Source: Candidatus Thorarchaeota archaeon (GTDB lineage: Archaea; Asgardarchaeota; Thorarchaeia; Thorarchaeales; Thorarchaeaceae). Taken from it: a stretch of DNA of 10,202 nt. The notes beneath the pieces are model-generated. The model searched no databases. It saw only the letters and a program-made list of their open reading frames with translations, and had not been told where the DNA came from. Numbering within the stretch: position 1 is the stretch's first letter; every line of letters begins with the position of its first letter. A program made the translations under genes and the position numbers. Positions 1-8,060 of this stretch are shown one piece after another. Where the stretch lies: assembly GCA_003345555.1 (NCBI GenBank), contig PRDJ01000060.1, positions 1 to 10,202 of the forward strand, written 5' to 3'.

Positions 1-982
1 TGCTCAAGTACTCAAGGTAGGCAGGTCTGGGAGGCAGTAGTGAGAGCAAATTGGTGGCGAGGATTCGCTGAAGGTCGTCAGCAGACGCGGCTAGGTTGCG
101 ACTCAAGAGAAAGCTGAGCACTTCGGAGATACTATCGCCGGTGTGAGTTTCAGGATAGGCACTGCCGAAGACTAGTTTGCTGGACCAGGGGGCGGCACCT
201 GTGGTGTTTCGAAGAAATGATACCACAGTCGACAGTAACCCTATTGTTGCCCCGCATGTGAGTAGCTTCGCACCCGGAATTTCAACCAACTTCGTTATTC
301 CAGAGCCCCAATCTTTGTAGCTTCTTACAGAAAGCAACAGGTTCGGACTATTGGTCTTGGCATTCTTCAGCTGTATCAACCATTTCATCAAGATGTCCAG
401 ATCGTCAGGCCCGTCAAGCTCTACGAACGTCGGTAGCCCGGATTCAACGTATCTGCGAGCCATCGAGCCGCGTGGGGTGCTCTCCAGTTTCTCCAAGTCC
501 GCCGGATTGAGAACAACCCCCCATCCTGGCATGCCCGTTCGGCCGTGACGCATATCTTGGAGGGAATAGAACCTAGGACTGTGAGGCAGCTGCTCAGACC
601 ATCTCTGGGTCGATTCGATATTCTTGCTCTGTTGTTGTTCAGACAGTTGCTGTCCGCCGATGGCAATCAGGGGTCTCGAGAAGAACAGATCTACGAACCA
701 GCTTGCGTTGGAGGGGTCAAGGCCGCTTGAATGAATCTCAGTCAGGATGGGAGGACGTTTCAAGTAGGCGTAAGCTCTGCGGGGGAGATATCTGAACGCT
801 CCTGGATATGTCGAAGCCAAGTCGTAGAGCTGGCCCTCGACCCTACCATAGTAAGACAACAATCTACTCGGGTCAAATGAGCGAGCTTCAACCCCTGCCC
901 TGACTGATCCGAGCTGAACGAATGAGTCGACCATAAACAAGGGTTTGATTTCCTTGTTCTCGATGTCCTCGACGACTATCAT
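1..982 (-). CDS. Amidohydrolase-fold (Amidohydro_2-like TIM barrel) protein with degenerate metal site; paralog of 1148..2662; partial, runs off the left edge (>=327 aa)
   Basis: Manual translation: open frame from ATG at 982 (in-frame TGA just upstream, GGAG at 995-992) to base 1 with no stop. Sequence: MIVVEDIENKEIKPLFMVDSFVQLG...LLSYYG...SWFVDLFFSRP...RWSEQLPHSPRFY...PWSSKLVFGSAYPE...LLSRNLAASADDLQRILATNLLSLL. These blocks are collinear with the plus-strand amidohydrolase. Not in the ORF track. Confidence 0.88.
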   Translation of the reverse strand, partial: MIVVEDIENKEIKPLFMVDSFVQLGSVRAGVEARSFDPSRLLSYYGRVEGQLYDLASTYPGAFRYLPRRAYAYLKRPPILTEIHSSGLDPSNASWFVDLFFSRPLIAIGGQQLSEQQQSKNIESTQRWSEQLPHSPRFYSLQDMRHGRTGMPGWGVVLNPADLEKLESTPRGSMARRYVESGLPTFVELDGPDDLDILMKWLIQLKNAKTNSPNLLLSVRSYKDWGSGITKLVEIPGAKLLTCGATIGLLSTVVSFLRNTTGAAPWSSKLVFGSAYPETHTGDSISEVLSFLLSRNLAASADDLQRILATNLLSLLPPRPAYLEYLS

Positions 983-1111: not shown

Positions 1112-1147
1112 GAATCCTAACATCAGGTTAGACGGAGAAGAGTGCAG

Positions 1148-2662
1148 ATGCTCGTTGTTCGCTCGGTTGAGGATCAACCAGCACATGGCTTGAAGAAAGG
1201 CGACTTGCTGCGCTTCTACATTGTCGACGCACATCATCACATGGGACGTGAGGGCAGCCATCAGAATACTCCCGCCGGAGCCTACTCTTACTATTCCCTT
1301 CTTTGGTTCGAATTGCGGCGAATGGCCAAGGAACGTTTGGAGAAAGATGAGCTCCTGTATGAGCCTGTGGATATCGAGCCGCCTCACACAGCTTCGAAAT
1401 GCTTCAATATCAGAAACAGCTGGGCCGAGATGAATCGCGGCTGGCTTGTTGACAGAACAATCGTGTTTCCATTCTCGGATGACTATGCCAAGAGCGACAA
1501 CAAGCTCGTGGCTTCGTTCAAGCTCTCGAATGATAGAATCGCCAGATGGACTACAAGGTCCCCTCATTCAACGCGGTTGATTGGTTTTGCACGCGTCGAC
1601 CCTACGGATGCCAGAACTATCGGTGCCGACTGCGCAGTCCGGGAGTTGCATAGAGCAGTCACCTTGCTTGGATTACGTGGCCTCAAGCTTCACCCGCTGG
1701 CCCAGCTGTTCCTTGACGATATTGAAGACGACATAACAAGACGGGTCGTGAAAAAAGCCGGTGAGTTGCACGTGCCGATTGTATTCGACACTAGGAACAT
1801 CCGGACAGTCCGGAGAATAAAGAACCTAATCGACGGAATGCGCTCAGACAAGTCGTGCGCCAACAGTATAACCGGAACTCGCATCGTATTGGCGCATTCA
1901 GCCATGACTCCGGGTGACACCTTTCTCCACGACACCCTCATGGATCCCGTATTCTGCACTGAGACTTCAGGTCTTCACGGTCAGGACTTGCCTGTGCTAA
2001 TGAAGGCTGCACAAGAACGAGACACACCTCCCGGAAACCAGTGGTCTAGCAGGATTCTCTTTGGAACTGACTATAGCTACTTCTCTTTGCACGCGGCTGA
2101 CACCATCCTGCACCTGCTATCAAGGGATTTTATTGGAGGTCCATCAGACATACAAAGAATCCTTGGGGAAAACGCGCTTTTGTTGGCGCAGAAGGTTTTT
2201 GTCACGCGTGGTCCAAGTCGCCGACGCCCAAGGCAGGTGGCCTTCAGGGACGATAGGAACCAAGGTCTTGATGGTTTCGAGAATCTTCTCTTTTCGCTTG
2301 TAAGAGATGAGCACTGGGATGTCTCCTCCCTCGATCTCATTATTCCCTCGCAGCGGGTCCTAACGAGCTCTAATGTGTCTCTCATGACCAAGACAATCGG
2401 TGTCGATACGGACTCGTATGTCTTGACGCTAAGGTCAAGGTCTGAGGGGGAGGAGGTACACGTTTGGGTTCGACGGCGCTCCGACAGACTGCTCACTTTC
2501 GCGGTAACAAGTGGCTACAATACTCGAGGAATAGGAGGATCCGAACTTGGCCTTCCTGAATCTGAGTCTCTCCTGCTAAAGGCTCTTGACGAACACACGA
2601 TATATGCGGATTCCTCTGATGCTCTCTCACAAGAAGTGCTGGAGACTCTAGGAACACAATAG
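1148..2662 (+). CDS. Metal-dependent amidohydrolase (Amidohydro_2-like) with ~155-aa C-terminal extension
   Basis: Motifs IVDAHHH (DAHHH at 1226-1240), GFARVDP, GLRGLKLHP (KLHP at 1685-1696), VLAH (H at 1895), ILFGTDY (D at 2069) and IQRILGENA. ATG 1148 is preferred over GTG 1142 because of GGAG spacing and because the MLVV start matches the paralog's MIVV. Confidence 0.9.
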   Translation: MLVVRSVEDQPAHGLKKGDLLRFYIVDAHHHMGREGSHQNTPAGAYSYYSLLWFELRRMAKERLEKDELLYEPVDIEPPHTASKCFNIRNSWAEMNRGWLVDRTIVFPFSDDYAKSDNKLVASFKLSNDRIARWTTRSPHSTRLIGFARVDPTDARTIGADCAVRELHRAVTLLGLRGLKLHPLAQLFLDDIEDDITRRVVKKAGELHVPIVFDTRNIRTVRRIKNLIDGMRSDKSCANSITGTRIVLAHSAMTPGDTFLHDTLMDPVFCTETSGLHGQDLPVLMKAAQERDTPPGNQWSSRILFGTDYSYFSLHAADTILHLLSRDFIGGPSDIQRILGENALLLAQKVFVTRGPSRRRPRQVAFRDDRNQGLDGFENLLFSLVRDEHWDVSSLDLIIPSQRVLTSSNVSLMTKTIGVDTDSYVLTLRSRSEGEEVHVWVRRRSDRLLTFAVTSGYNTRGIGGSELGLPESESLLLKALDEHTIYADSSDALSQEVLETLGTQ

Positions 2663-2667
2663 CGGCG

Positions 2668-2720
2668 TGAAATTGTTTATAACACTAGGCTCTGACCAAG
2701 CGTCATCATATCGGCGGAGG
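2668..2720 (+). promoter_or_regulatory. Putative BRE/TATA promoter (TGAAATTGTTTATAAC) plus GGAGG SD for the vWA gene
   Basis: TTTATAA at 2676-2682 preceded by GAAA; GGAGG at 2716-2720. Confidence 0.6.
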
Positions 2721-2746
2721 AACATCGTATCGTCAAGAAACTGGCC

Positions 2747-4018
2747 TTGGAAATCGTTGATGGCGGAGAACTCAAGGGATATGCGAGCCTTCATCCCAAG
2801 ACTGCCGAGAGTCTGAAAGCGGATATCGGTTCCATTGTGCTGTTCGAGGACCCTGAGAGCGGCTTCTGGGGCGCCGCTGAGATTCGAAAGAGTCCCGATG
2901 TTCCTCAAAACAAGATGGTTGTAGATAGCCTGGTGTTAGAAGCCTCTCTGCTGATGGAAGGCGACAGGGTTGACGTAACACTCTATGAGAGACCAATGAC
3001 AGCACTAGACTATGTTGAATTCGGGCTGAAGCCACTGACGGAGGATGCCAATACCGAGGACTTGGTGACGCGCGCCGCGGAGAGTGTATCCTCGCTTGAG
3101 AAGCTCATTGGGGGGCGCCTCGTCTACCCCGGAATGTCGTTCAACTGGCCCGACTTGGGAGTCAAGGTTGAGATACTGAACACGAGACCTGCTCTTACGG
3201 GCAGGAGTTTCGCGAAGCTGGCCTTTGAAGCATTGAGGGCTAAGACCGGTTATCAGTTCAAGACCGTGGGAATATCGACACCCTTCAATGCGATTCTCTG
3301 CATAGACACGAGTGGCTCGATGAAAACGGGCGACGTACCTGTGAAAGATGTCGCACATGCAAGGGAAGGTCTGAAGGATTTGGCTGGCGACAATCCTGAC
3401 GTTCAAGCATTTCTTGACCGATTTGAGGAGGGTACGAACGTCACTCGTGCAGAAGCTGCAGCCATGGCTGTGTTGTTATATCTGGCAGAGAAGGTTGGAC
3501 GGGGTTATGGTGAGAAAGTTGCCGTGATTACTTTCGAAAGGGATGTCAGTGAAATGACGTTCATGGACCCTGACACGGGTGACGTGCGGCCTTATGTTGA
3601 GTGCACGGGCAAGAACAAGGCAATAGGTCTGCAAGTGATTAGCACACACGTCATCGATAAGGTGGAAGAGGGCGGCACGCTGACGAACATGGGCGATGCG
3701 CTGATGAAGGCTGGCGAGATACTGGATGCTTTTGGTGATCCGAGGAAACCAACTATGCTGATTATGCTGACTGACGGGATGACTACTACCGGGCCTCCAC
3801 CATTGAAGGTCTTAAAAGAAAGATTCTCCGGCCACAGGAAGCTTGTCATGTATTGCATTGGCTTGGGTGAGCGGAACGAGATTGATGAAGAGCTTATGCT
3901 CGCAATGGCTGAGTACGGTAACGGCACTTACAGGCATGTAGACAACATGAGAGATCTTCTTGAGTGGTACGGCCGACTGGCGAGCGAGTTTGCAGTCGTC
4001 ATACGTGGCAGAGAGTGA
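2747..4018 (+). CDS. Cdc48/VAT-like N-domain fused to a von Willebrand factor A domain with intact MIDAS; no ATPase domain (start may lie upstream, near 2729)
   Basis: N-terminal GYASLHPKTAESLKADIGSIV, NKMVVDSLVLEASLLMEGDRVDV, LIGGRLVYPGMSF and VEILNTRP follow the double-psi barrel plus beta-clam pattern of Cdc48 N-domains. vWA motifs: AILCIDTSGSM (DTSGS at 3305-3319), TNMGDAL, LIMLTDG (D at 3773), MYCIGLG, DEELMLAMAEYGNGTYRHV. No Walker A motif. Confidence 0.85.
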   Translation: MEIVDGGELKGYASLHPKTAESLKADIGSIVLFEDPESGFWGAAEIRKSPDVPQNKMVVDSLVLEASLLMEGDRVDVTLYERPMTALDYVEFGLKPLTEDANTEDLVTRAAESVSSLEKLIGGRLVYPGMSFNWPDLGVKVEILNTRPALTGRSFAKLAFEALRAKTGYQFKTVGISTPFNAILCIDTSGSMKTGDVPVKDVAHAREGLKDLAGDNPDVQAFLDRFEEGTNVTRAEAAAMAVLLYLAEKVGRGYGEKVAVITFERDVSEMTFMDPDTGDVRPYVECTGKNKAIGLQVISTHVIDKVEEGGTLTNMGDALMKAGEILDAFGDPRKPTMLIMLTDGMTTTGPPPLKVLKERFSGHRKLVMYCIGLGERNEIDEELMLAMAEYGNGTYRHVDNMRDLLEWYGRLASEFAVVIRGRE

Positions 4019-4021
4019 TGT

Positions 4022-5260
4022 CTATTCCCTGGGCTTGAGCGCCTCAGTCAGGTTCTTGAGTGTCTCTATGTCCATATCACGTATCTGTTCAGGCGGGAGG
4101 CCCTCCAGCATATGGGGCGGCACTTGAATGAGCAGGTCTGCTTTCGCTTCCCCGTATGCGTTCGCAAGTTCCTTCCATCGCATGTCAGACTGCCCCGGTT
4201 TCAATGTTGGCGCCATCTTCCCAGCGGCAGATTTTGGTTCTTTGCCGCCTTCAGCTCGGAGTGCTTCTGCACCGGTCTCTGCTTCGGTTTCTTCTTGCCC
4301 AGCCGAGGTGCCTACCAGAGCTTCAAGTTCTTCCTTGGTGAGGGTGTCCATTATCTCTGGTGAAACCTCCTCCTTCACTTCCTCGGGCAGACTGTCAATC
4401 AACTCCTCTCTCGTCTGTCCCACCGCAACTTTCCGCACCTTCTTAACTCTGCGGACCTTGATTGGCTTTTTCTTGGCCTCCGCTTCAGCTGATGCCGGAA
4501 ATGAGGCTTTCAAGGAGTCCACCAGTTCCCTCGCCGTGGTCACGTTGAGACGTCTCAAGTCTTCTACAGGTAGTGTGGCTCTAATCTCGTCTGGTAGCTC
4601 TGCTAGAATGCCCTCAACTCCGGGAGATAGTCCCGCGCCTCTCGCTACCGTGGGCGCTTCGACGAGCTTGGCCTTGATACCTTTTCGTTCTTCAGTTAGT
4701 ATGATTGGTTTTCCTTCGAGTTCTTCAACCATTCTTCTCGTATCGATTTCGACATTGAACTTAGCTTCGCTCCATGTAGTGAATCGGTCTATTGCTTCTG
4801 GCTGAACCCCTAGGTCAGTGAGGAAGACATTGACATCATCCTCGCTCATCTCCGGTAGGCCCGAAATCAACAGATCGATGTCCTTGCTGGGCACCCGAGC
4901 CCAAGTCGGACCAGGAAGCAGCTTAGATAGTCCGACGGCACAGTGCGATCGAACCCATGTGTTGGAATCCTTTAGGCCCTTGAGGAGATCCGGAATCGTT
5001 CGCGGCTGACTGTACCAAGCAAGGAGCTGGGCGGCTGCGATTCTCACGTCGGAATCCTCATCGGTCAGAGTCTTGGACGCGTCCGTCACGATGTGCGGGT
5101 CTCCGAGTTCGATTGAGGCAACCAGTGCTCTCTCTCTAACAATCTCGGATGAATCGGAAAAGGCCTGAATGAGTGAAGCTCGTACCTTCGAATTCTCCTT
5201 GGCCAGTCGAGCCACTTCATCGGTCTCGAAATCCAATAATAGCCGCCGTGTTTCTGACAA
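4022..5260 (-). CDS. HEAT/PBS-lyase-repeat protein with acidic, low-complexity C-terminal half containing three helical LP repeats
   Basis: Three HEAT-like units (LIQAFSDSSEIVRERALVAS; ASKTLTDEDSDVRIAAAQLL; LLKGLKDSNTWVRSHCAVGL). TTG start preceded by GGAGCG at ~9 nt. Confidence 0.85.
   Translation of the reverse strand: MSETRRLLLDFETDEVARLAKENSKVRASLIQAFSDSSEIVRERALVASIELGDPHIVTDASKTLTDEDSDVRIAAAQLLAWYSQPRTIPDLLKGLKDSNTWVRSHCAVGLSKLLPGPTWARVPSKDIDLLISGLPEMSEDDVNVFLTDLGVQPEAIDRFTTWSEAKFNVEIDTRRMVEELEGKPIILTEERKGIKAKLVEAPTVARGAGLSPGVEGILAELPDEIRATLPVEDLRRLNVTTARELVDSLKASFPASAEAEAKKKPIKVRRVKKVRKVAVGQTREELIDSLPEEVKEEVSPEIMDTLTKEELEALVGTSAGQEETEAETGAEALRAEGGKEPKSAAGKMAPTLKPGQSDMRWKELANAYGEAKADLLIQVPPHMLEGLPPEQIRDMDIETLKNLTEALKPRE
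4037..4609 (-). repeat. Three dispersed ~33-aa protein repeats (aa 218-250, 287-319, 376-408) in the HEAT protein
   Basis: ILAELPDEIRATLPVEDLRRLNVTTARELVDSL / LIDSLPEEVKEEVSPEIMDTLTKEELEALVGTS / LLIQVPPHMLEGLPPEQIRDMDIETLKNLTEAL align without gaps. Confidence 0.7.
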
Positions 5261-5537: not shown

Positions 5538-6350
5538 ATGGGCGAAGGCAGAAGCATCGCACTCGTTAGGGTTGTGTTGTTCTCCTTGGTTATGCTTCTT
5601 GCTGTTGAGCTTTCTCCACTGGTTGCGGCAGCACTATACGGTTCTGACATGTACGACGTAGCCAACACCCTACTATTCTTCGGGACCTTTGTCTTGATGT
5701 ACTTTGCAGCAGTGATTTTCGTACGATGGGAGGGTGGCAGGTCTGTAACTGAACTGGGTCTGACCATCGGCTCGAGGACCAATCTCATGTTGACTGTTGG
5801 TGCGGTGTCCGGCATGGTGGCCGCGGGATTCGTGGTCCTCATCGCGTTGCTGTTTGGTGGGCAACTGCGTCCAGCGTCTGAAATCACCAGTGACCTATTG
5901 GTCGGCGAAGTCATCATCACAATCCCTGTAGCAGTATTCGAGGAGCTCTGCTATCGGGGCTATTTGATGTCACGAATGACAGACTTGTGGGGTCTGCCAA
6001 CAGGCATTATCATCAGTTCGCTGGTGTTCTCACTACTTCACTTCAATTGGTGGCTTCCCCTAGGTTTTGTCCCATATCATCTTGTGGCAATCTTCACTTT
6101 CAACATGTTTCTCGGCGGCATCGTCTTGGGCCTGAGCTACCATCTTTCTGGAAACAAGCTATGGGCTCCGATCGCATTCCATTTTGTCTGGAACATTATT
6201 GCTTACATACTGTTTCCTGTGTATCCTAGTGTGCCGGTGGTCGCCCCTGAACTGTTCCAGATTGAGTGGGGTCTCTCAACAATGCCTGGATTCTTGCTAG
6301 GTCTACTGGTCTTGCTTGTGTTCTTGAGAGGAAGGGTAGAAAAGAAGTGA
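5538..6350 (+). CDS. CPBP family (CAAX protease/Abi, type II) intramembrane glutamic/metalloprotease
   Basis: Multiple TM segments plus the three family motifs FEELCYRGY (EExxxR), FSLLH (FxxxH) and IAFHFVWN (HxxxN). Confidence 0.92.
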   Translation: MGEGRSIALVRVVLFSLVMLLAVELSPLVAAALYGSDMYDVANTLLFFGTFVLMYFAAVIFVRWEGGRSVTELGLTIGSRTNLMLTVGAVSGMVAAGFVVLIALLFGGQLRPASEITSDLLVGEVIITIPVAVFEELCYRGYLMSRMTDLWGLPTGIIISSLVFSLLHFNWWLPLGFVPYHLVAIFTFNMFLGGIVLGLSYHLSGNKLWAPIAFHFVWNIIAYILFPVYPSVPVVAPELFQIEWGLSTMPGFLLGLLVLLVFLRGRVEKK

Positions 6351-6352
6351 GT

Positions 6353-6373
6353 GAGCCGACGCTCAGTCGGCTC
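6353..6373. terminator. GC-rich hairpin between convergent CPBP and NfeD genes (possible bidirectional terminator)
   Basis: Perfect 8-bp stem GAGCCGAC / GTCGGCTC with 5-nt loop, filling the 30-nt gap between two stop codons. No U-tract. Confidence 0.5.
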
Positions 6374-6380
6374 GACCCTA

Positions 6381-7091
6381 CTAATCATTTCGGCCTTGGA
6401 TGGCCTGAGAGTATCTCTCTTCGTCTCTTGCGACTATCATGGTAAGCCCAGTGATAGCCTTAACAACAACACTCTCGCCTTGTTTTATTGGAGGACCGGA
6501 TGTCCTTGCCCACCAGATTTCAGATCCCGCCCTGACCTTGCCTCTCGGGTTTATGTCTGTTATAGCGACAACATCATGTGTCTTGCCGTATGTGTACTCG
6601 GGCCACTTGTCGTAATTGCGAAGGAAGACGAAGTAAAGGCTCATCAATGCACCGACCGTGCCGACCATGATATACACTGCCGTTCGGCGAGTCGGGTCCA
6701 CAATGACAGAGAGGAGTATCGCGAGGCCGTAGAGTGGGAAGAGTTTCAATGAGAGCTTTGCGTCAATGAGTCCTCCTTCGAGTGTCCCTCCACCGCCTGT
6801 GAAGAGGGTGAAGAGCATGTATAGGATGCCCCCGACTACCACTAGCATCCACAGCTCGAACTGAAAGCTCGGATTTAGGAATAACTGGAAGAGGAAGAGG
6901 ATGAGGACGATTGGAATGGTCACCTGAGCCATTGCCTTCCCGGTGGCCGGATCAAGGGTTACAACCATCAGTGTGAGCAAGACACTTAGCAGTATCAAGC
7001 CGACAAATGGGTCAAACATCAGATCTCCTATGATCATGCTAAGTGCTGACACCATCATCAGCACTACGATGATCTTTATCCAAGCGTCCAT
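6381..7091 (-). CDS. NfeD-like membrane protein (about 6 TM helices plus C-terminal OB-fold, no ClpP-like protease domain)
   Basis: C-terminal GKVRAGSEIWWARTSGPPIKQGESVVVKAITGLTMIV matches the NfeD OB-fold signature. Directly downstream of an SPFH gene. GGAG immediately upstream of the ATG. Confidence 0.85.
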   Translation of the reverse strand: MDAWIKIIVVLMMVSALSMIIGDLMFDPFVGLILLSVLLTLMVVTLDPATGKAMAQVTIPIVLILFLFQLFLNPSFQFELWMLVVVGGILYMLFTLFTGGGGTLEGGLIDAKLSLKLFPLYGLAILLSVIVDPTRRTAVYIMVGTVGALMSLYFVFLRNYDKWPEYTYGKTHDVVAITDINPRGKVRAGSEIWWARTSGPPIKQGESVVVKAITGLTMIVARDEERYSQAIQGRND

Positions 7092-7122
7092 CTCCTACTG
7101 TCTCCCTTTCAACTCCTTCATT

Positions 7123-7968
7123 TCAGCTCTCCGCTTCAGCTGTCTTCTTTCTCTGAAGCTTTATGCCACCAGTTCCAGCAGCTATCGCGGCAGATATACT
7201 GGCGTTCATGCCAGCATCTGGTATGTTGGTAGGCACCATCAATATCAGGCTGGCGTTTGTGCTGATTTGCTGTATAACGTTCCAGATACGCAATGCGAAG
7301 CCAACGCTCGACTCCTCGTAAATGCGGGCAGCCTTGAGCATTGCTTCTGATGCCTCGAGCTCTGCCTGAGCCAGTGTAACTCTTGCTCTCCTTTCTCTCT
7401 CTGCTTGGGCTTCCCTGCTCATTGCGTCCTGAAGTTGGGTGGGAATGACAACATCTCTGATTTCAACTGCGGTGACTTTGATACCCCACTGTTCAGTTTT
7501 GATATCGATGACTTCCTGCAAGTGGGCGGCAATCTTGTCCCTCTCTGCAAGAATCTCGTCGAGCGGTGCCTTGCCAATAACCTCTCGCAAGGTTGTCTGA
7601 GCCGCGAGCTCGACAGCCACTGTGTACCTCTCTACGCTTAGAATCGCCTTCTCTACTTCAATGACCCTGAAGTACATCACTGCGTCCACGACAACCGGGA
7701 CGTTGTCTCTGGTAAGTGATCTCTCCGTCTTGAAAGCGTACGTCTGTAGTCGAAGAGACACTTTCATAGCGATTTTATCCAAGATGGGTGTAACCCATAT
7801 TACACCCGGACCTTTGATATGCTTGAACTTTCCAAGACGGAGTATAGCTACACGCTCCCACTCTTTTAGGACTCTGATTCCGCTTGCGATAAACATGAGC
7901 ACGAAAAATGCAAGCACAATGATCATGAATGTCCAGAGCGTGCTATTAAACAGGAATTCGAACTGCAA
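7123..7968 (-). CDS. SPFH domain / stomatin-like (band 7) membrane protein
   Basis: One N-terminal TM, then GIRVLKEWERVAILRLGK, GPGVIWVTPILD, SLTRDNVPVVVDAVMYFRV, AQTTLREVIG, WGIKVTAVEIRDV, MSREAQAERERRA. Start set at TTG 7968 (GGAGCG 8 nt upstream); ATG 8034 (near-leaderless) is an alternative. Confidence 0.93.
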   Translation of the reverse strand: MQFEFLFNSTLWTFMIIVLAFFVLMFIASGIRVLKEWERVAILRLGKFKHIKGPGVIWVTPILDKIAMKVSLRLQTYAFKTERSLTRDNVPVVVDAVMYFRVIEVEKAILSVERYTVAVELAAQTTLREVIGKAPLDEILAERDKIAAHLQEVIDIKTEQWGIKVTAVEIRDVVIPTQLQDAMSREAQAERERRARVTLAQAELEASEAMLKAARIYEESSVGFALRIWNVIQQISTNASLILMVPTNIPDAGMNASISAAIAAGTGGIKLQRKKTAEAES

Positions 7969-8060
7969 TTTACTTCGCTCCTTTTCACATATGACATGGG
8001 CAGTGCGGGTACCAGTACCGGCCTGATTCCCCATTCCCAAGCTCCTGTTACAGCGAACGC

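Follow-up and report, generated by a model that had tools for sequence, protein, structure and literature searches.

We analysed a 10.2-kb stretch of archaeal DNA (the window), which is the complete contig C60 of a 2.28 Mb genome that is 93% complete. The nearest relatives of the proteins encoded in the window are from Thorarchaeota (Asgard archaea). The subject of this work is one of these proteins, here called the target, in which a predicted Cdc48/p97-type N domain is followed directly by a von Willebrand factor type A (vWA) domain with a metal ion-dependent adhesion site (MIDAS), together with the two enzymes to which its gene is linked, a metal hydrolase and a carboxylate-amine ligase. 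The target gene and the parts of its product are located as follows.

2747-4018, forward strand: coding sequence of the Cdc48N-vWA protein (the target), 423 amino acids from TTG at 2747, stop included
2747-3217, forward strand: predicted Cdc48/p97-type N domain, residues 1-157 (AlphaFold2 models, Foldseek and VIA-align)
3263-4000, forward strand: vWA domain, residues 173-418 (Pfam VWA_2 and VIA-align)
3305-3319, forward strand: MIDAS loop 1, DTSGS, residues 187-191, the single DxSxS of the target
3323-3445, forward strand: family-specific helical insert, residues 193-233, between MIDAS loop 1 and helix 1
3683-3685 and 3773-3775, forward strand: the other MIDAS residues, T313 and D343

A first-pass annotation, made from the sequence alone, had read residues ~1-150 of the target as following the Cdc48/VAT N-domain pattern in both subdomains. 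In two AlphaFold2 models the predicted local distance difference test (pLDDT) score is ~80 over residues 1-150 and 60-85 in the second beta lobe, and the region folds into a double-psi beta-barrel (residues ~1-82) and a second beta lobe (residues ~86-157). Foldseek aligned the N-domain model to the N domain of p97/Cdc48 over ~155 columns (E = 1e-8, probability 1.00, template modelling (TM) score ~0.5). Based on VIA-align, the N domain matches CDC48A-N (Z = 13.4, 118 residues aligned), the double-psi barrel of VAT (7dbo_B; Z = 12.4, 78 aligned, root-mean-square deviation 1.8), PEX1-N (Z = 11.4, 120 aligned) and the N-terminal domain (NTD) of DEPDC5 (Z = 11.1), the last giving the longest of the N-domain alignments with 141 residues. 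The alignments to CDC48A-N, PEX1-N and the DEPDC5 NTD run over model residues 1-157, so that the second, CDC48_2-like lobe is covered. Pfam CDC48_N (PF02359) has no match in the target at E values up to 1, neither Pfam nor NCBIfam has a match in the N-terminal 175 residues, and an N-domain profile searched against PDB sequences returned chance-level matches only. In four distant relatives CDC48_N is matched at E values of 1.7e-6 to ~1e-4 (22-28 bits, below the cut-off of 35.1). The models confirm that the N-terminal region is predicted to be a two-lobed Cdc48/p97-type N domain, with both of the fold lobes (Pfam CDC48_N and CDC48_2) that are found in Cdc48/p97/VAT, NSF/Sec18 and Pex1.

The vWA domain that follows is the part of the architecture that Pfam recognises above cut-off (VWA_2, E = 5.6e-8, 33.8 bits against a cut-off of 27); weaker matches to VWA_3 and VWA extend to residue 402. 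Across 31 Thorarchaeota homologues the MIDAS residues D187, S189, S191, T313 and D343 do not vary, and they are retained in all distant family members aligned, with the exception of a dead fusion paralogue described below. VIA-align of residues 173-418 gave Z scores of 11-13 to integrin I domains, Ssl1/p44, Rpn10 (12.1-12.2), ArnB and Sec24, and ArnB (8s05_B) is 24% identical to the target vWA over 153 residues. These results confirm an ordinary vWA domain with an intact MIDAS, and the target ends five residues past it. The vWA fold is shared with ArnB (of the ArnAB complex), the Sec23/24 trunk, Ssl1/p44, Rpn10 and the integrin I domains, but a preceding Cdc48-type N domain is found in none of them. 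The target family also differs from them in its partners and in the helical insert of ~40 residues after MIDAS loop 1, which hardly varies in Thorarchaeota and can still be recognised in the Loki-type and fused paralogues. No Walker A motif, strict or loose, was found in the target. In Cdc48/p97 AAA+ ATPases a D1 AAA+ ring follows the N domain, whereas the target has a vWA domain in this place and no Walker motifs. The N-domain fold matches and the vWA and MIDAS results bear out the first description of the protein, as a Cdc48-type N domain directly followed by a MIDAS-intact vWA domain and lacking an ATPase.

The target has ~120 close homologues at 65-95% identity, every one of them assigned to Thorarchaeota or Asgard in its annotation. 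When the N domain served as the profile for an exhaustive search, 42 cluster representatives were recovered, among which those that are named come from bins of Odin-like, Asgardarchaeum, Hermod, Promethearchaeota and Korarchaeota. In a Pfam scan of 34 representatives, a vWA domain was found in 27 and an AAA domain in none. Among the same 34, a further double-psi barrel of the Molydop_binding type occurs in three, and a ubiquitin-like domain of the YukD type (E = 1.2e-6) in one distant family member. In a Loki-type form of 828 amino acids, the C-terminal 412 residues correspond to the target at 35% identity (hhalign E = 1.4e-49), and the MIDAS is preserved. We considered whether the N-terminal 415 residues of this long form are an amidohydrolase-like half, and rejected the idea because there is no such likeness. 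A 392-amino-acid vWA protein encoded upstream in a closed Thorarchaeota genome was likewise rejected as a paralogue, its kinship with the target being undetectable. A word-based search for longer fused relatives returned none, which counts as weak evidence.

The first-pass annotation had gone on to propose that the target joins two recognition modules and may deliver substrates to Cdc48/PAN or to a MoxR-type ATPase. There are precedents for vWA domains as partners of AAA+ ATPases, in MoxR/RavA-ViaA and in the BchD subunit of Mg-chelatase, and Rpn10 has a vWA domain too. An adaptor without an ATPase of its own, serving the proteasome, Cdc48/PAN or a MoxR-type AAA+ ATPase from another locus, would suit the N-domain fold, to which cofactors and substrates bind in Cdc48/p97, NSF and Pex1, as well as the presence of Rpn10 among the vWA fold matches and of the ubiquitin-like domain in one distant family member. 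However, no AAA+ gene is found in the window, or adjoining the target in the homologue loci annotated or scanned, which come from five Asgard families. The two MoxR-type (AAA_3) genes of the host genome are on other contigs (C49 and C67), and the scan of 34 family members argues against a fused AAA domain. MoxR-associated vWA proteins (ViaA, BatA-type) are encoded beside a MoxR (AAA_3) ATPase; the target gene has no such neighbour in the annotated loci. Its conserved neighbours are instead enzymes of another kind, an amidohydrolase and a GCS2-like ligase. A binding role for the target is reasonable and is retained from the earlier proposal, but an AAA+ ATPase or the proteasome as the partner is very unlikely.

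The genes on either side of the target in the window are the following.

1142-2662, forward strand: Amidohydro_2-type metal hydrolase, 506 amino acids, the upstream partner (gene calls start at ATG 1148)
2-982, reverse strand: N-terminal 327 amino acids of a divergent, dead fusion paralogue, comprising its inactivated amidohydrolase-like half, cut by the contig end (~880 amino acids in complete genomes)
4022-5260, reverse strand: HEAT-repeat protein, 412 amino acids, convergent to the target, its position kept in Thorarchaeota only

The window shares its gene order with three other Thorarchaeota loci: the gene for the ~880-amino-acid protein on the reverse strand, the Amidohydro_2 gene (~500 amino acids) and the target gene on the forward strand, the HEAT gene on the reverse strand and then genes for Rce1, NfeD and stomatin. 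In all four of these loci the hydrolase gene is on the strand of the target, 60-100 nucleotides upstream of it. It is directly upstream in an Asgardarchaeum locus too, and is divergent from the target in one distant family member. Across the Thorarchaeota surveyed, the two genes are adjacent in nearly all genomes that have both on one contig. The hydrolase has all its metal ligands in place. It carries the motifs DAHHH, KLHP and FGTDY, and its residues D27, H29, H31, H182, H250 and D308 are invariant even in members that are only 27% identical. Its C-terminal extension of ~150 amino acids (residues ~350-506, window 2186-2662) has no Pfam match; the predicted elements of this extension follow an alpha-beta4-alpha pattern, and part of it is retained in the dead fusion. 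When compared in the same genomes, the target is much more conserved than the hydrolase (77, 66 and 73% against 46, 44 and 45% identity), which fits a protein with several constrained interfaces.

Past the HEAT gene lie genes for a Rce1-like CAAX protease, NfeD and a stomatin/SPFH protein (window 5538-8040), in an order that is kept in the four Thorarchaeota loci listed. NfeD and stomatin are a known pair.

The truncated open reading frame at 2-982 matches the hydrolase (E = 4e-7) and has FGSAY where the hydrolase has FGTDY. In a closed Thorarchaeota genome the corresponding protein has 878 amino acids. Its residues 499-804 align to residues 28-342 of the target (E = 7e-12), with IDTSGSM of the MIDAS changed to IIHSEGM and the MIDAS Thr and Asp lost. 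Its N-terminal half matches the hydrolase (E = 5e-7 and 6e-5), with DAHHH changed to DASVS and FGTDY to FSSGY. Judged from these substitutions, the ~880-amino-acid gene product is a catalytically dead copy of both proteins in a single chain, in which a hydrolase-like half precedes a Cdc48N-vWA-like half. A single chain that holds both partners in the same order is evidence that the separate hydrolase and target work together.

The third member of the group is seen in the Asgardarchaeum locus, where a GCS2-like carboxylate-amine ligase of 1144 amino acids is encoded just downstream of the target and convergent to it. In five genomes from five Asgard families, wherever a copy of the target is linked to the hydrolase, the same cluster also contains the ligase. 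Genomes G038 and G006 each have two complete, duplicated target-hydrolase-ligase triplets, and in G102 the order is rearranged to hydrolase, ligase, target. Pfam GCS2 has no match in the host genome of the window. A search with the Asgardarchaeum ligase found the ligase N-terminus at the end of contig C39 (17-394, reverse strand), which fits the usual place of the ligase, a few kb past the DUF92 gene at the end of the window contig. Contig C39 probably follows C60 in the host genome, with ~3 kb of the ligase gene unassembled.

We surveyed the target, the hydrolase (E values up to 1e-40) and the ligase in the same set of 201 Asgard genomes. The target, traced by its N domain, is present in 96 genomes, the hydrolase in 99 and the ligase in 99, and the tallies by family are near-identical. 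In family f1 the count is 35 of 43 for all three alike. Seven high-completeness Thorarchaeota genomes lack the target, the hydrolase and the ligase together, and all three are absent from the sampled genomes of families f5 (0 of 21) and f12 (0 of 19). The N domain is single-copy in Thorarchaeota (35 of 43) and triple-copy in two families.

Co-folding of the hydrolase with the target gave a median interaction prediction score from aligned errors (ipSAE) of 0.56 (runs of 0.54, 0.56 and 0.67), against 0.00 for the best of three controls, with contact agreement of at least 69% between runs and a partner pLDDT of at least 76. In the calibration of this approach, 58 of 80 solved complexes attained the mark, as did 2 of 110 mismatched pairs; passes at 0.60 or under came from only 7 of the 80 solved complexes and from both of the mismatched pairs that passed. 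Given the strong prior from linkage and fusion, we take the predicted complex as a modest, weak addition to that evidence.

On balance, the target is probably a non-catalytic, MIDAS-dependent binding subunit of an Asgard three-gene module that also comprises the Amidohydro_2 hydrolase and the giant GCS2-like ligase. In such a module the target would form a complex with the hydrolase, its MIDAS metal would bind a partner or substrate through an acidic side chain or a carboxylate, and the cleft of its N domain would hold a peptide or small protein. The bound substrate might thereby be presented to a ligase-hydrolase pair for the formation and removal of an amide (or related) bond. PafA/Dop in pupylation and EgtA/EgtC in ergothioneine synthesis each pair a ligase with a hydrolase in forming and removing amide bonds, and they serve here as an analogy only. 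The likeness lies in a ligase of the GCS2/glutamine-synthetase superfamily encoded with a hydrolase and, here, a non-catalytic recognition protein. The Asgard hydrolase is a TIM-barrel Amidohydro_2 protein and neither a PafA homologue nor an N-terminal nucleophile (Ntn) hydrolase. A literature search found no published description of an Asgard ligase-hydrolase-Cdc48N-vWA module.

Several observations weigh against this assignment. None of the three proteins has an established biochemical function, the ligase matches Pfam GCS2 over ~40 residues only, and the co-fold pass falls in the weak band (0.60 or under). Members of Amidohydro_2 are often decarboxylases or lactonases and not amidases. In the Loki-type family f9 the long form is encoded 10-50 kb from the ligase-hydrolase pair, so that linkage there is by co-occurrence only. 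G038 and G006 each have a third, unpaired copy of the target. The target gene also has a conserved TATA-like element of its own and may be transcribed separately from the hydrolase. This element and two further features precede the target gene.

2676-2682, forward strand: TTTATAA, intergenic between the hydrolase stop and the target start, candidate archaeal TATA box
2716-2720, forward strand: GGAGG, upstream of the target gene
2729-2731, forward strand: in-frame ATC, aligned with the ATG start of two Thorarchaeota homologues

TTTATAA is preceded by GAAATTG (together window 2669-2682), and the core ATT.TTTA.AA is kept in four Thorarchaeota loci and one Asgardarchaeum locus. It is a candidate archaeal transcription factor B recognition element (BRE)/TATA promoter of the target gene, from which the target may be transcribed separately from the hydrolase. 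GGAGG lies 27 nucleotides from the called TTG start at 2747 and 8 nucleotides from the ATC at 2729, and the upstream peptide IVKKLA pairs with MVKRLS and MAKRLS of the two Thorarchaeota homologues. Based on this spacing, the alignment with the ATG starts and the peptide match, the 5' end of the target is uncertain by six codons, and a non-canonical AUC start or an N-terminus longer by six residues may apply.

A protein that acts on its own in metal-dependent adhesion or assembly, without a fixed partner, would suit the TATA-like element and the unpaired third copies, and its place beside the hydrolase would then be inherited synteny of no functional consequence; vWA domains are widespread as generic interaction modules. 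Such a protein is hard to reconcile with linkage and co-occurrence across five Asgard families despite rearranged gene orders and duplicated triplets, or with the dead paralogue in which both partners are joined in one chain. In addition, no signal peptide or membrane segment is evident in the target by direct reading of the sequence, no predictor having been run. We consider a stand-alone role quite unlikely and retain the binding subunit of the three-gene module as the preferred explanation.

The first-pass annotation knew of no characterised protein with this architecture. In this it overlooked DEPDC5/Iml1, in which an NTD that resembles Sec18/NSF-N is accompanied by a SABA domain that resembles Sec23 (PMC8534245). 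In the front half of DEPDC5/Iml1 (Sea1), a subunit of GATOR1/SEACIT, a two-lobed Cdc48/NSF-N-type domain is directly followed by an alpha/beta domain of the vWA/Sec23-trunk type, as in the target, and DEPDC5/Iml1 is a non-catalytic binding scaffold, as the target is read to be. NPRL2-like proteins have been reported in most metagenome-assembled genomes of Thorarchaeota, with no DEPDC5 counterpart reported (Liu et al., bioRxiv 10.1101/2020.10.19.343400). The target could be the archaeal counterpart, by descent or function, of the DEPDC5 NTD-SABA, and would then scaffold longin/roadblock GTPase-activating proteins (GAPs) that act on Rag-like small GTPases. Apart from the shared domain order and the long NTD alignment, a full-length Foldseek search matched DEPDC5/Sea1 chains at E values of 6e-8 to 8e-7 (query TM 0.19-0.25, compared with ~0.19 for p97 N-D1), and the host genome has small GTPases above the Gtr1_RagA cut-off. 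A Robl_LC7 gene also adjoins the long form in two Loki-type loci.

L019 (G147:C7), 11530-14345: Roadblock/LC7 gene beside the long form (720-830 amino acids)
L013, 7338-10487: Roadblock/LC7 gene beside the long form (720-830 amino acids)

In L019 an actin homologue is encoded 1.5 kb downstream.

Against a DEPDC5-type scaffold, chains of p97 N-D1 align over the same length in Foldseek, which indicates that an N domain joined to any alpha/beta sandwich yields such matches. Sequence similarity to DEPDC5 is undetectable: Pfam IML1 (PF12257) is not among the target matches at E values up to 1, the profiles recover no DEPDC5 from PDB sequences, and searches of the ESM Atlas by features and by shape returned vWA and AAA clusters only and no IML1 cluster. 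The vWA half of the target matches generic vWA domains as well as or better than the DEPDC5 SABA, it keeps a full MIDAS unlike DEPDC5, and when the whole model is compared by VIA-align, DEPDC5 is outside the top 50 matches. The target lacks the SHEN, DEP and C-terminal domains of DEPDC5/Iml1. The partners differ as well, being NPRL2/3 and Rag GTPases for DEPDC5 and the ligase and hydrolase for the target. The conserved ligase and hydrolase have no counterpart in GATOR1, and no longin, roadblock or GTPase gene lies beside the target in the four Thorarchaeota loci listed. Pfam NPR2 is unmatched in the host genome; more sensitive methods had been necessary to detect the published NPRL2-like proteins of Asgard archaea. 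A scaffold of the DEPDC5 kind is thus unlikely. True descent, in which the NTD-SABA module of DEPDC5/Iml1 would go back to the Cdc48N-vWA family of Asgard archaea, is just as improbable. We keep DEPDC5 as a resemblance because of the lack of a sequence signal, the generic vWA domain, the absence of the later DEPDC5 domains and partners unrelated to those of GATOR1.

The target is among the most conserved proteins of its neighbourhood, with ~77% identity across Thorarchaeota against ~48% for the enzyme encoded beside it, and occurs together with both enzymes in roughly half of the Asgard genomes sampled. It brings known binding domains into a new combination, within an undescribed and widely conserved Asgard ligase-hydrolase module. 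If an amide linkage is made and removed on a bound substrate, the module would be a new modification system of Asgard archaea, one in which a Cdc48-type domain serves for recognition with no ATPase involved. The likeness in layout to the front half of DEPDC5 also provides a concrete archaeal candidate with which the origin of the third GATOR1 subunit can be tested. Were the family indeed its forerunner, the GAP scaffold of GATOR1 nutrient sensing would have an archaeal root, beside the NPRL2-like longins and Rag-like GTPases already reported in Asgard archaea.

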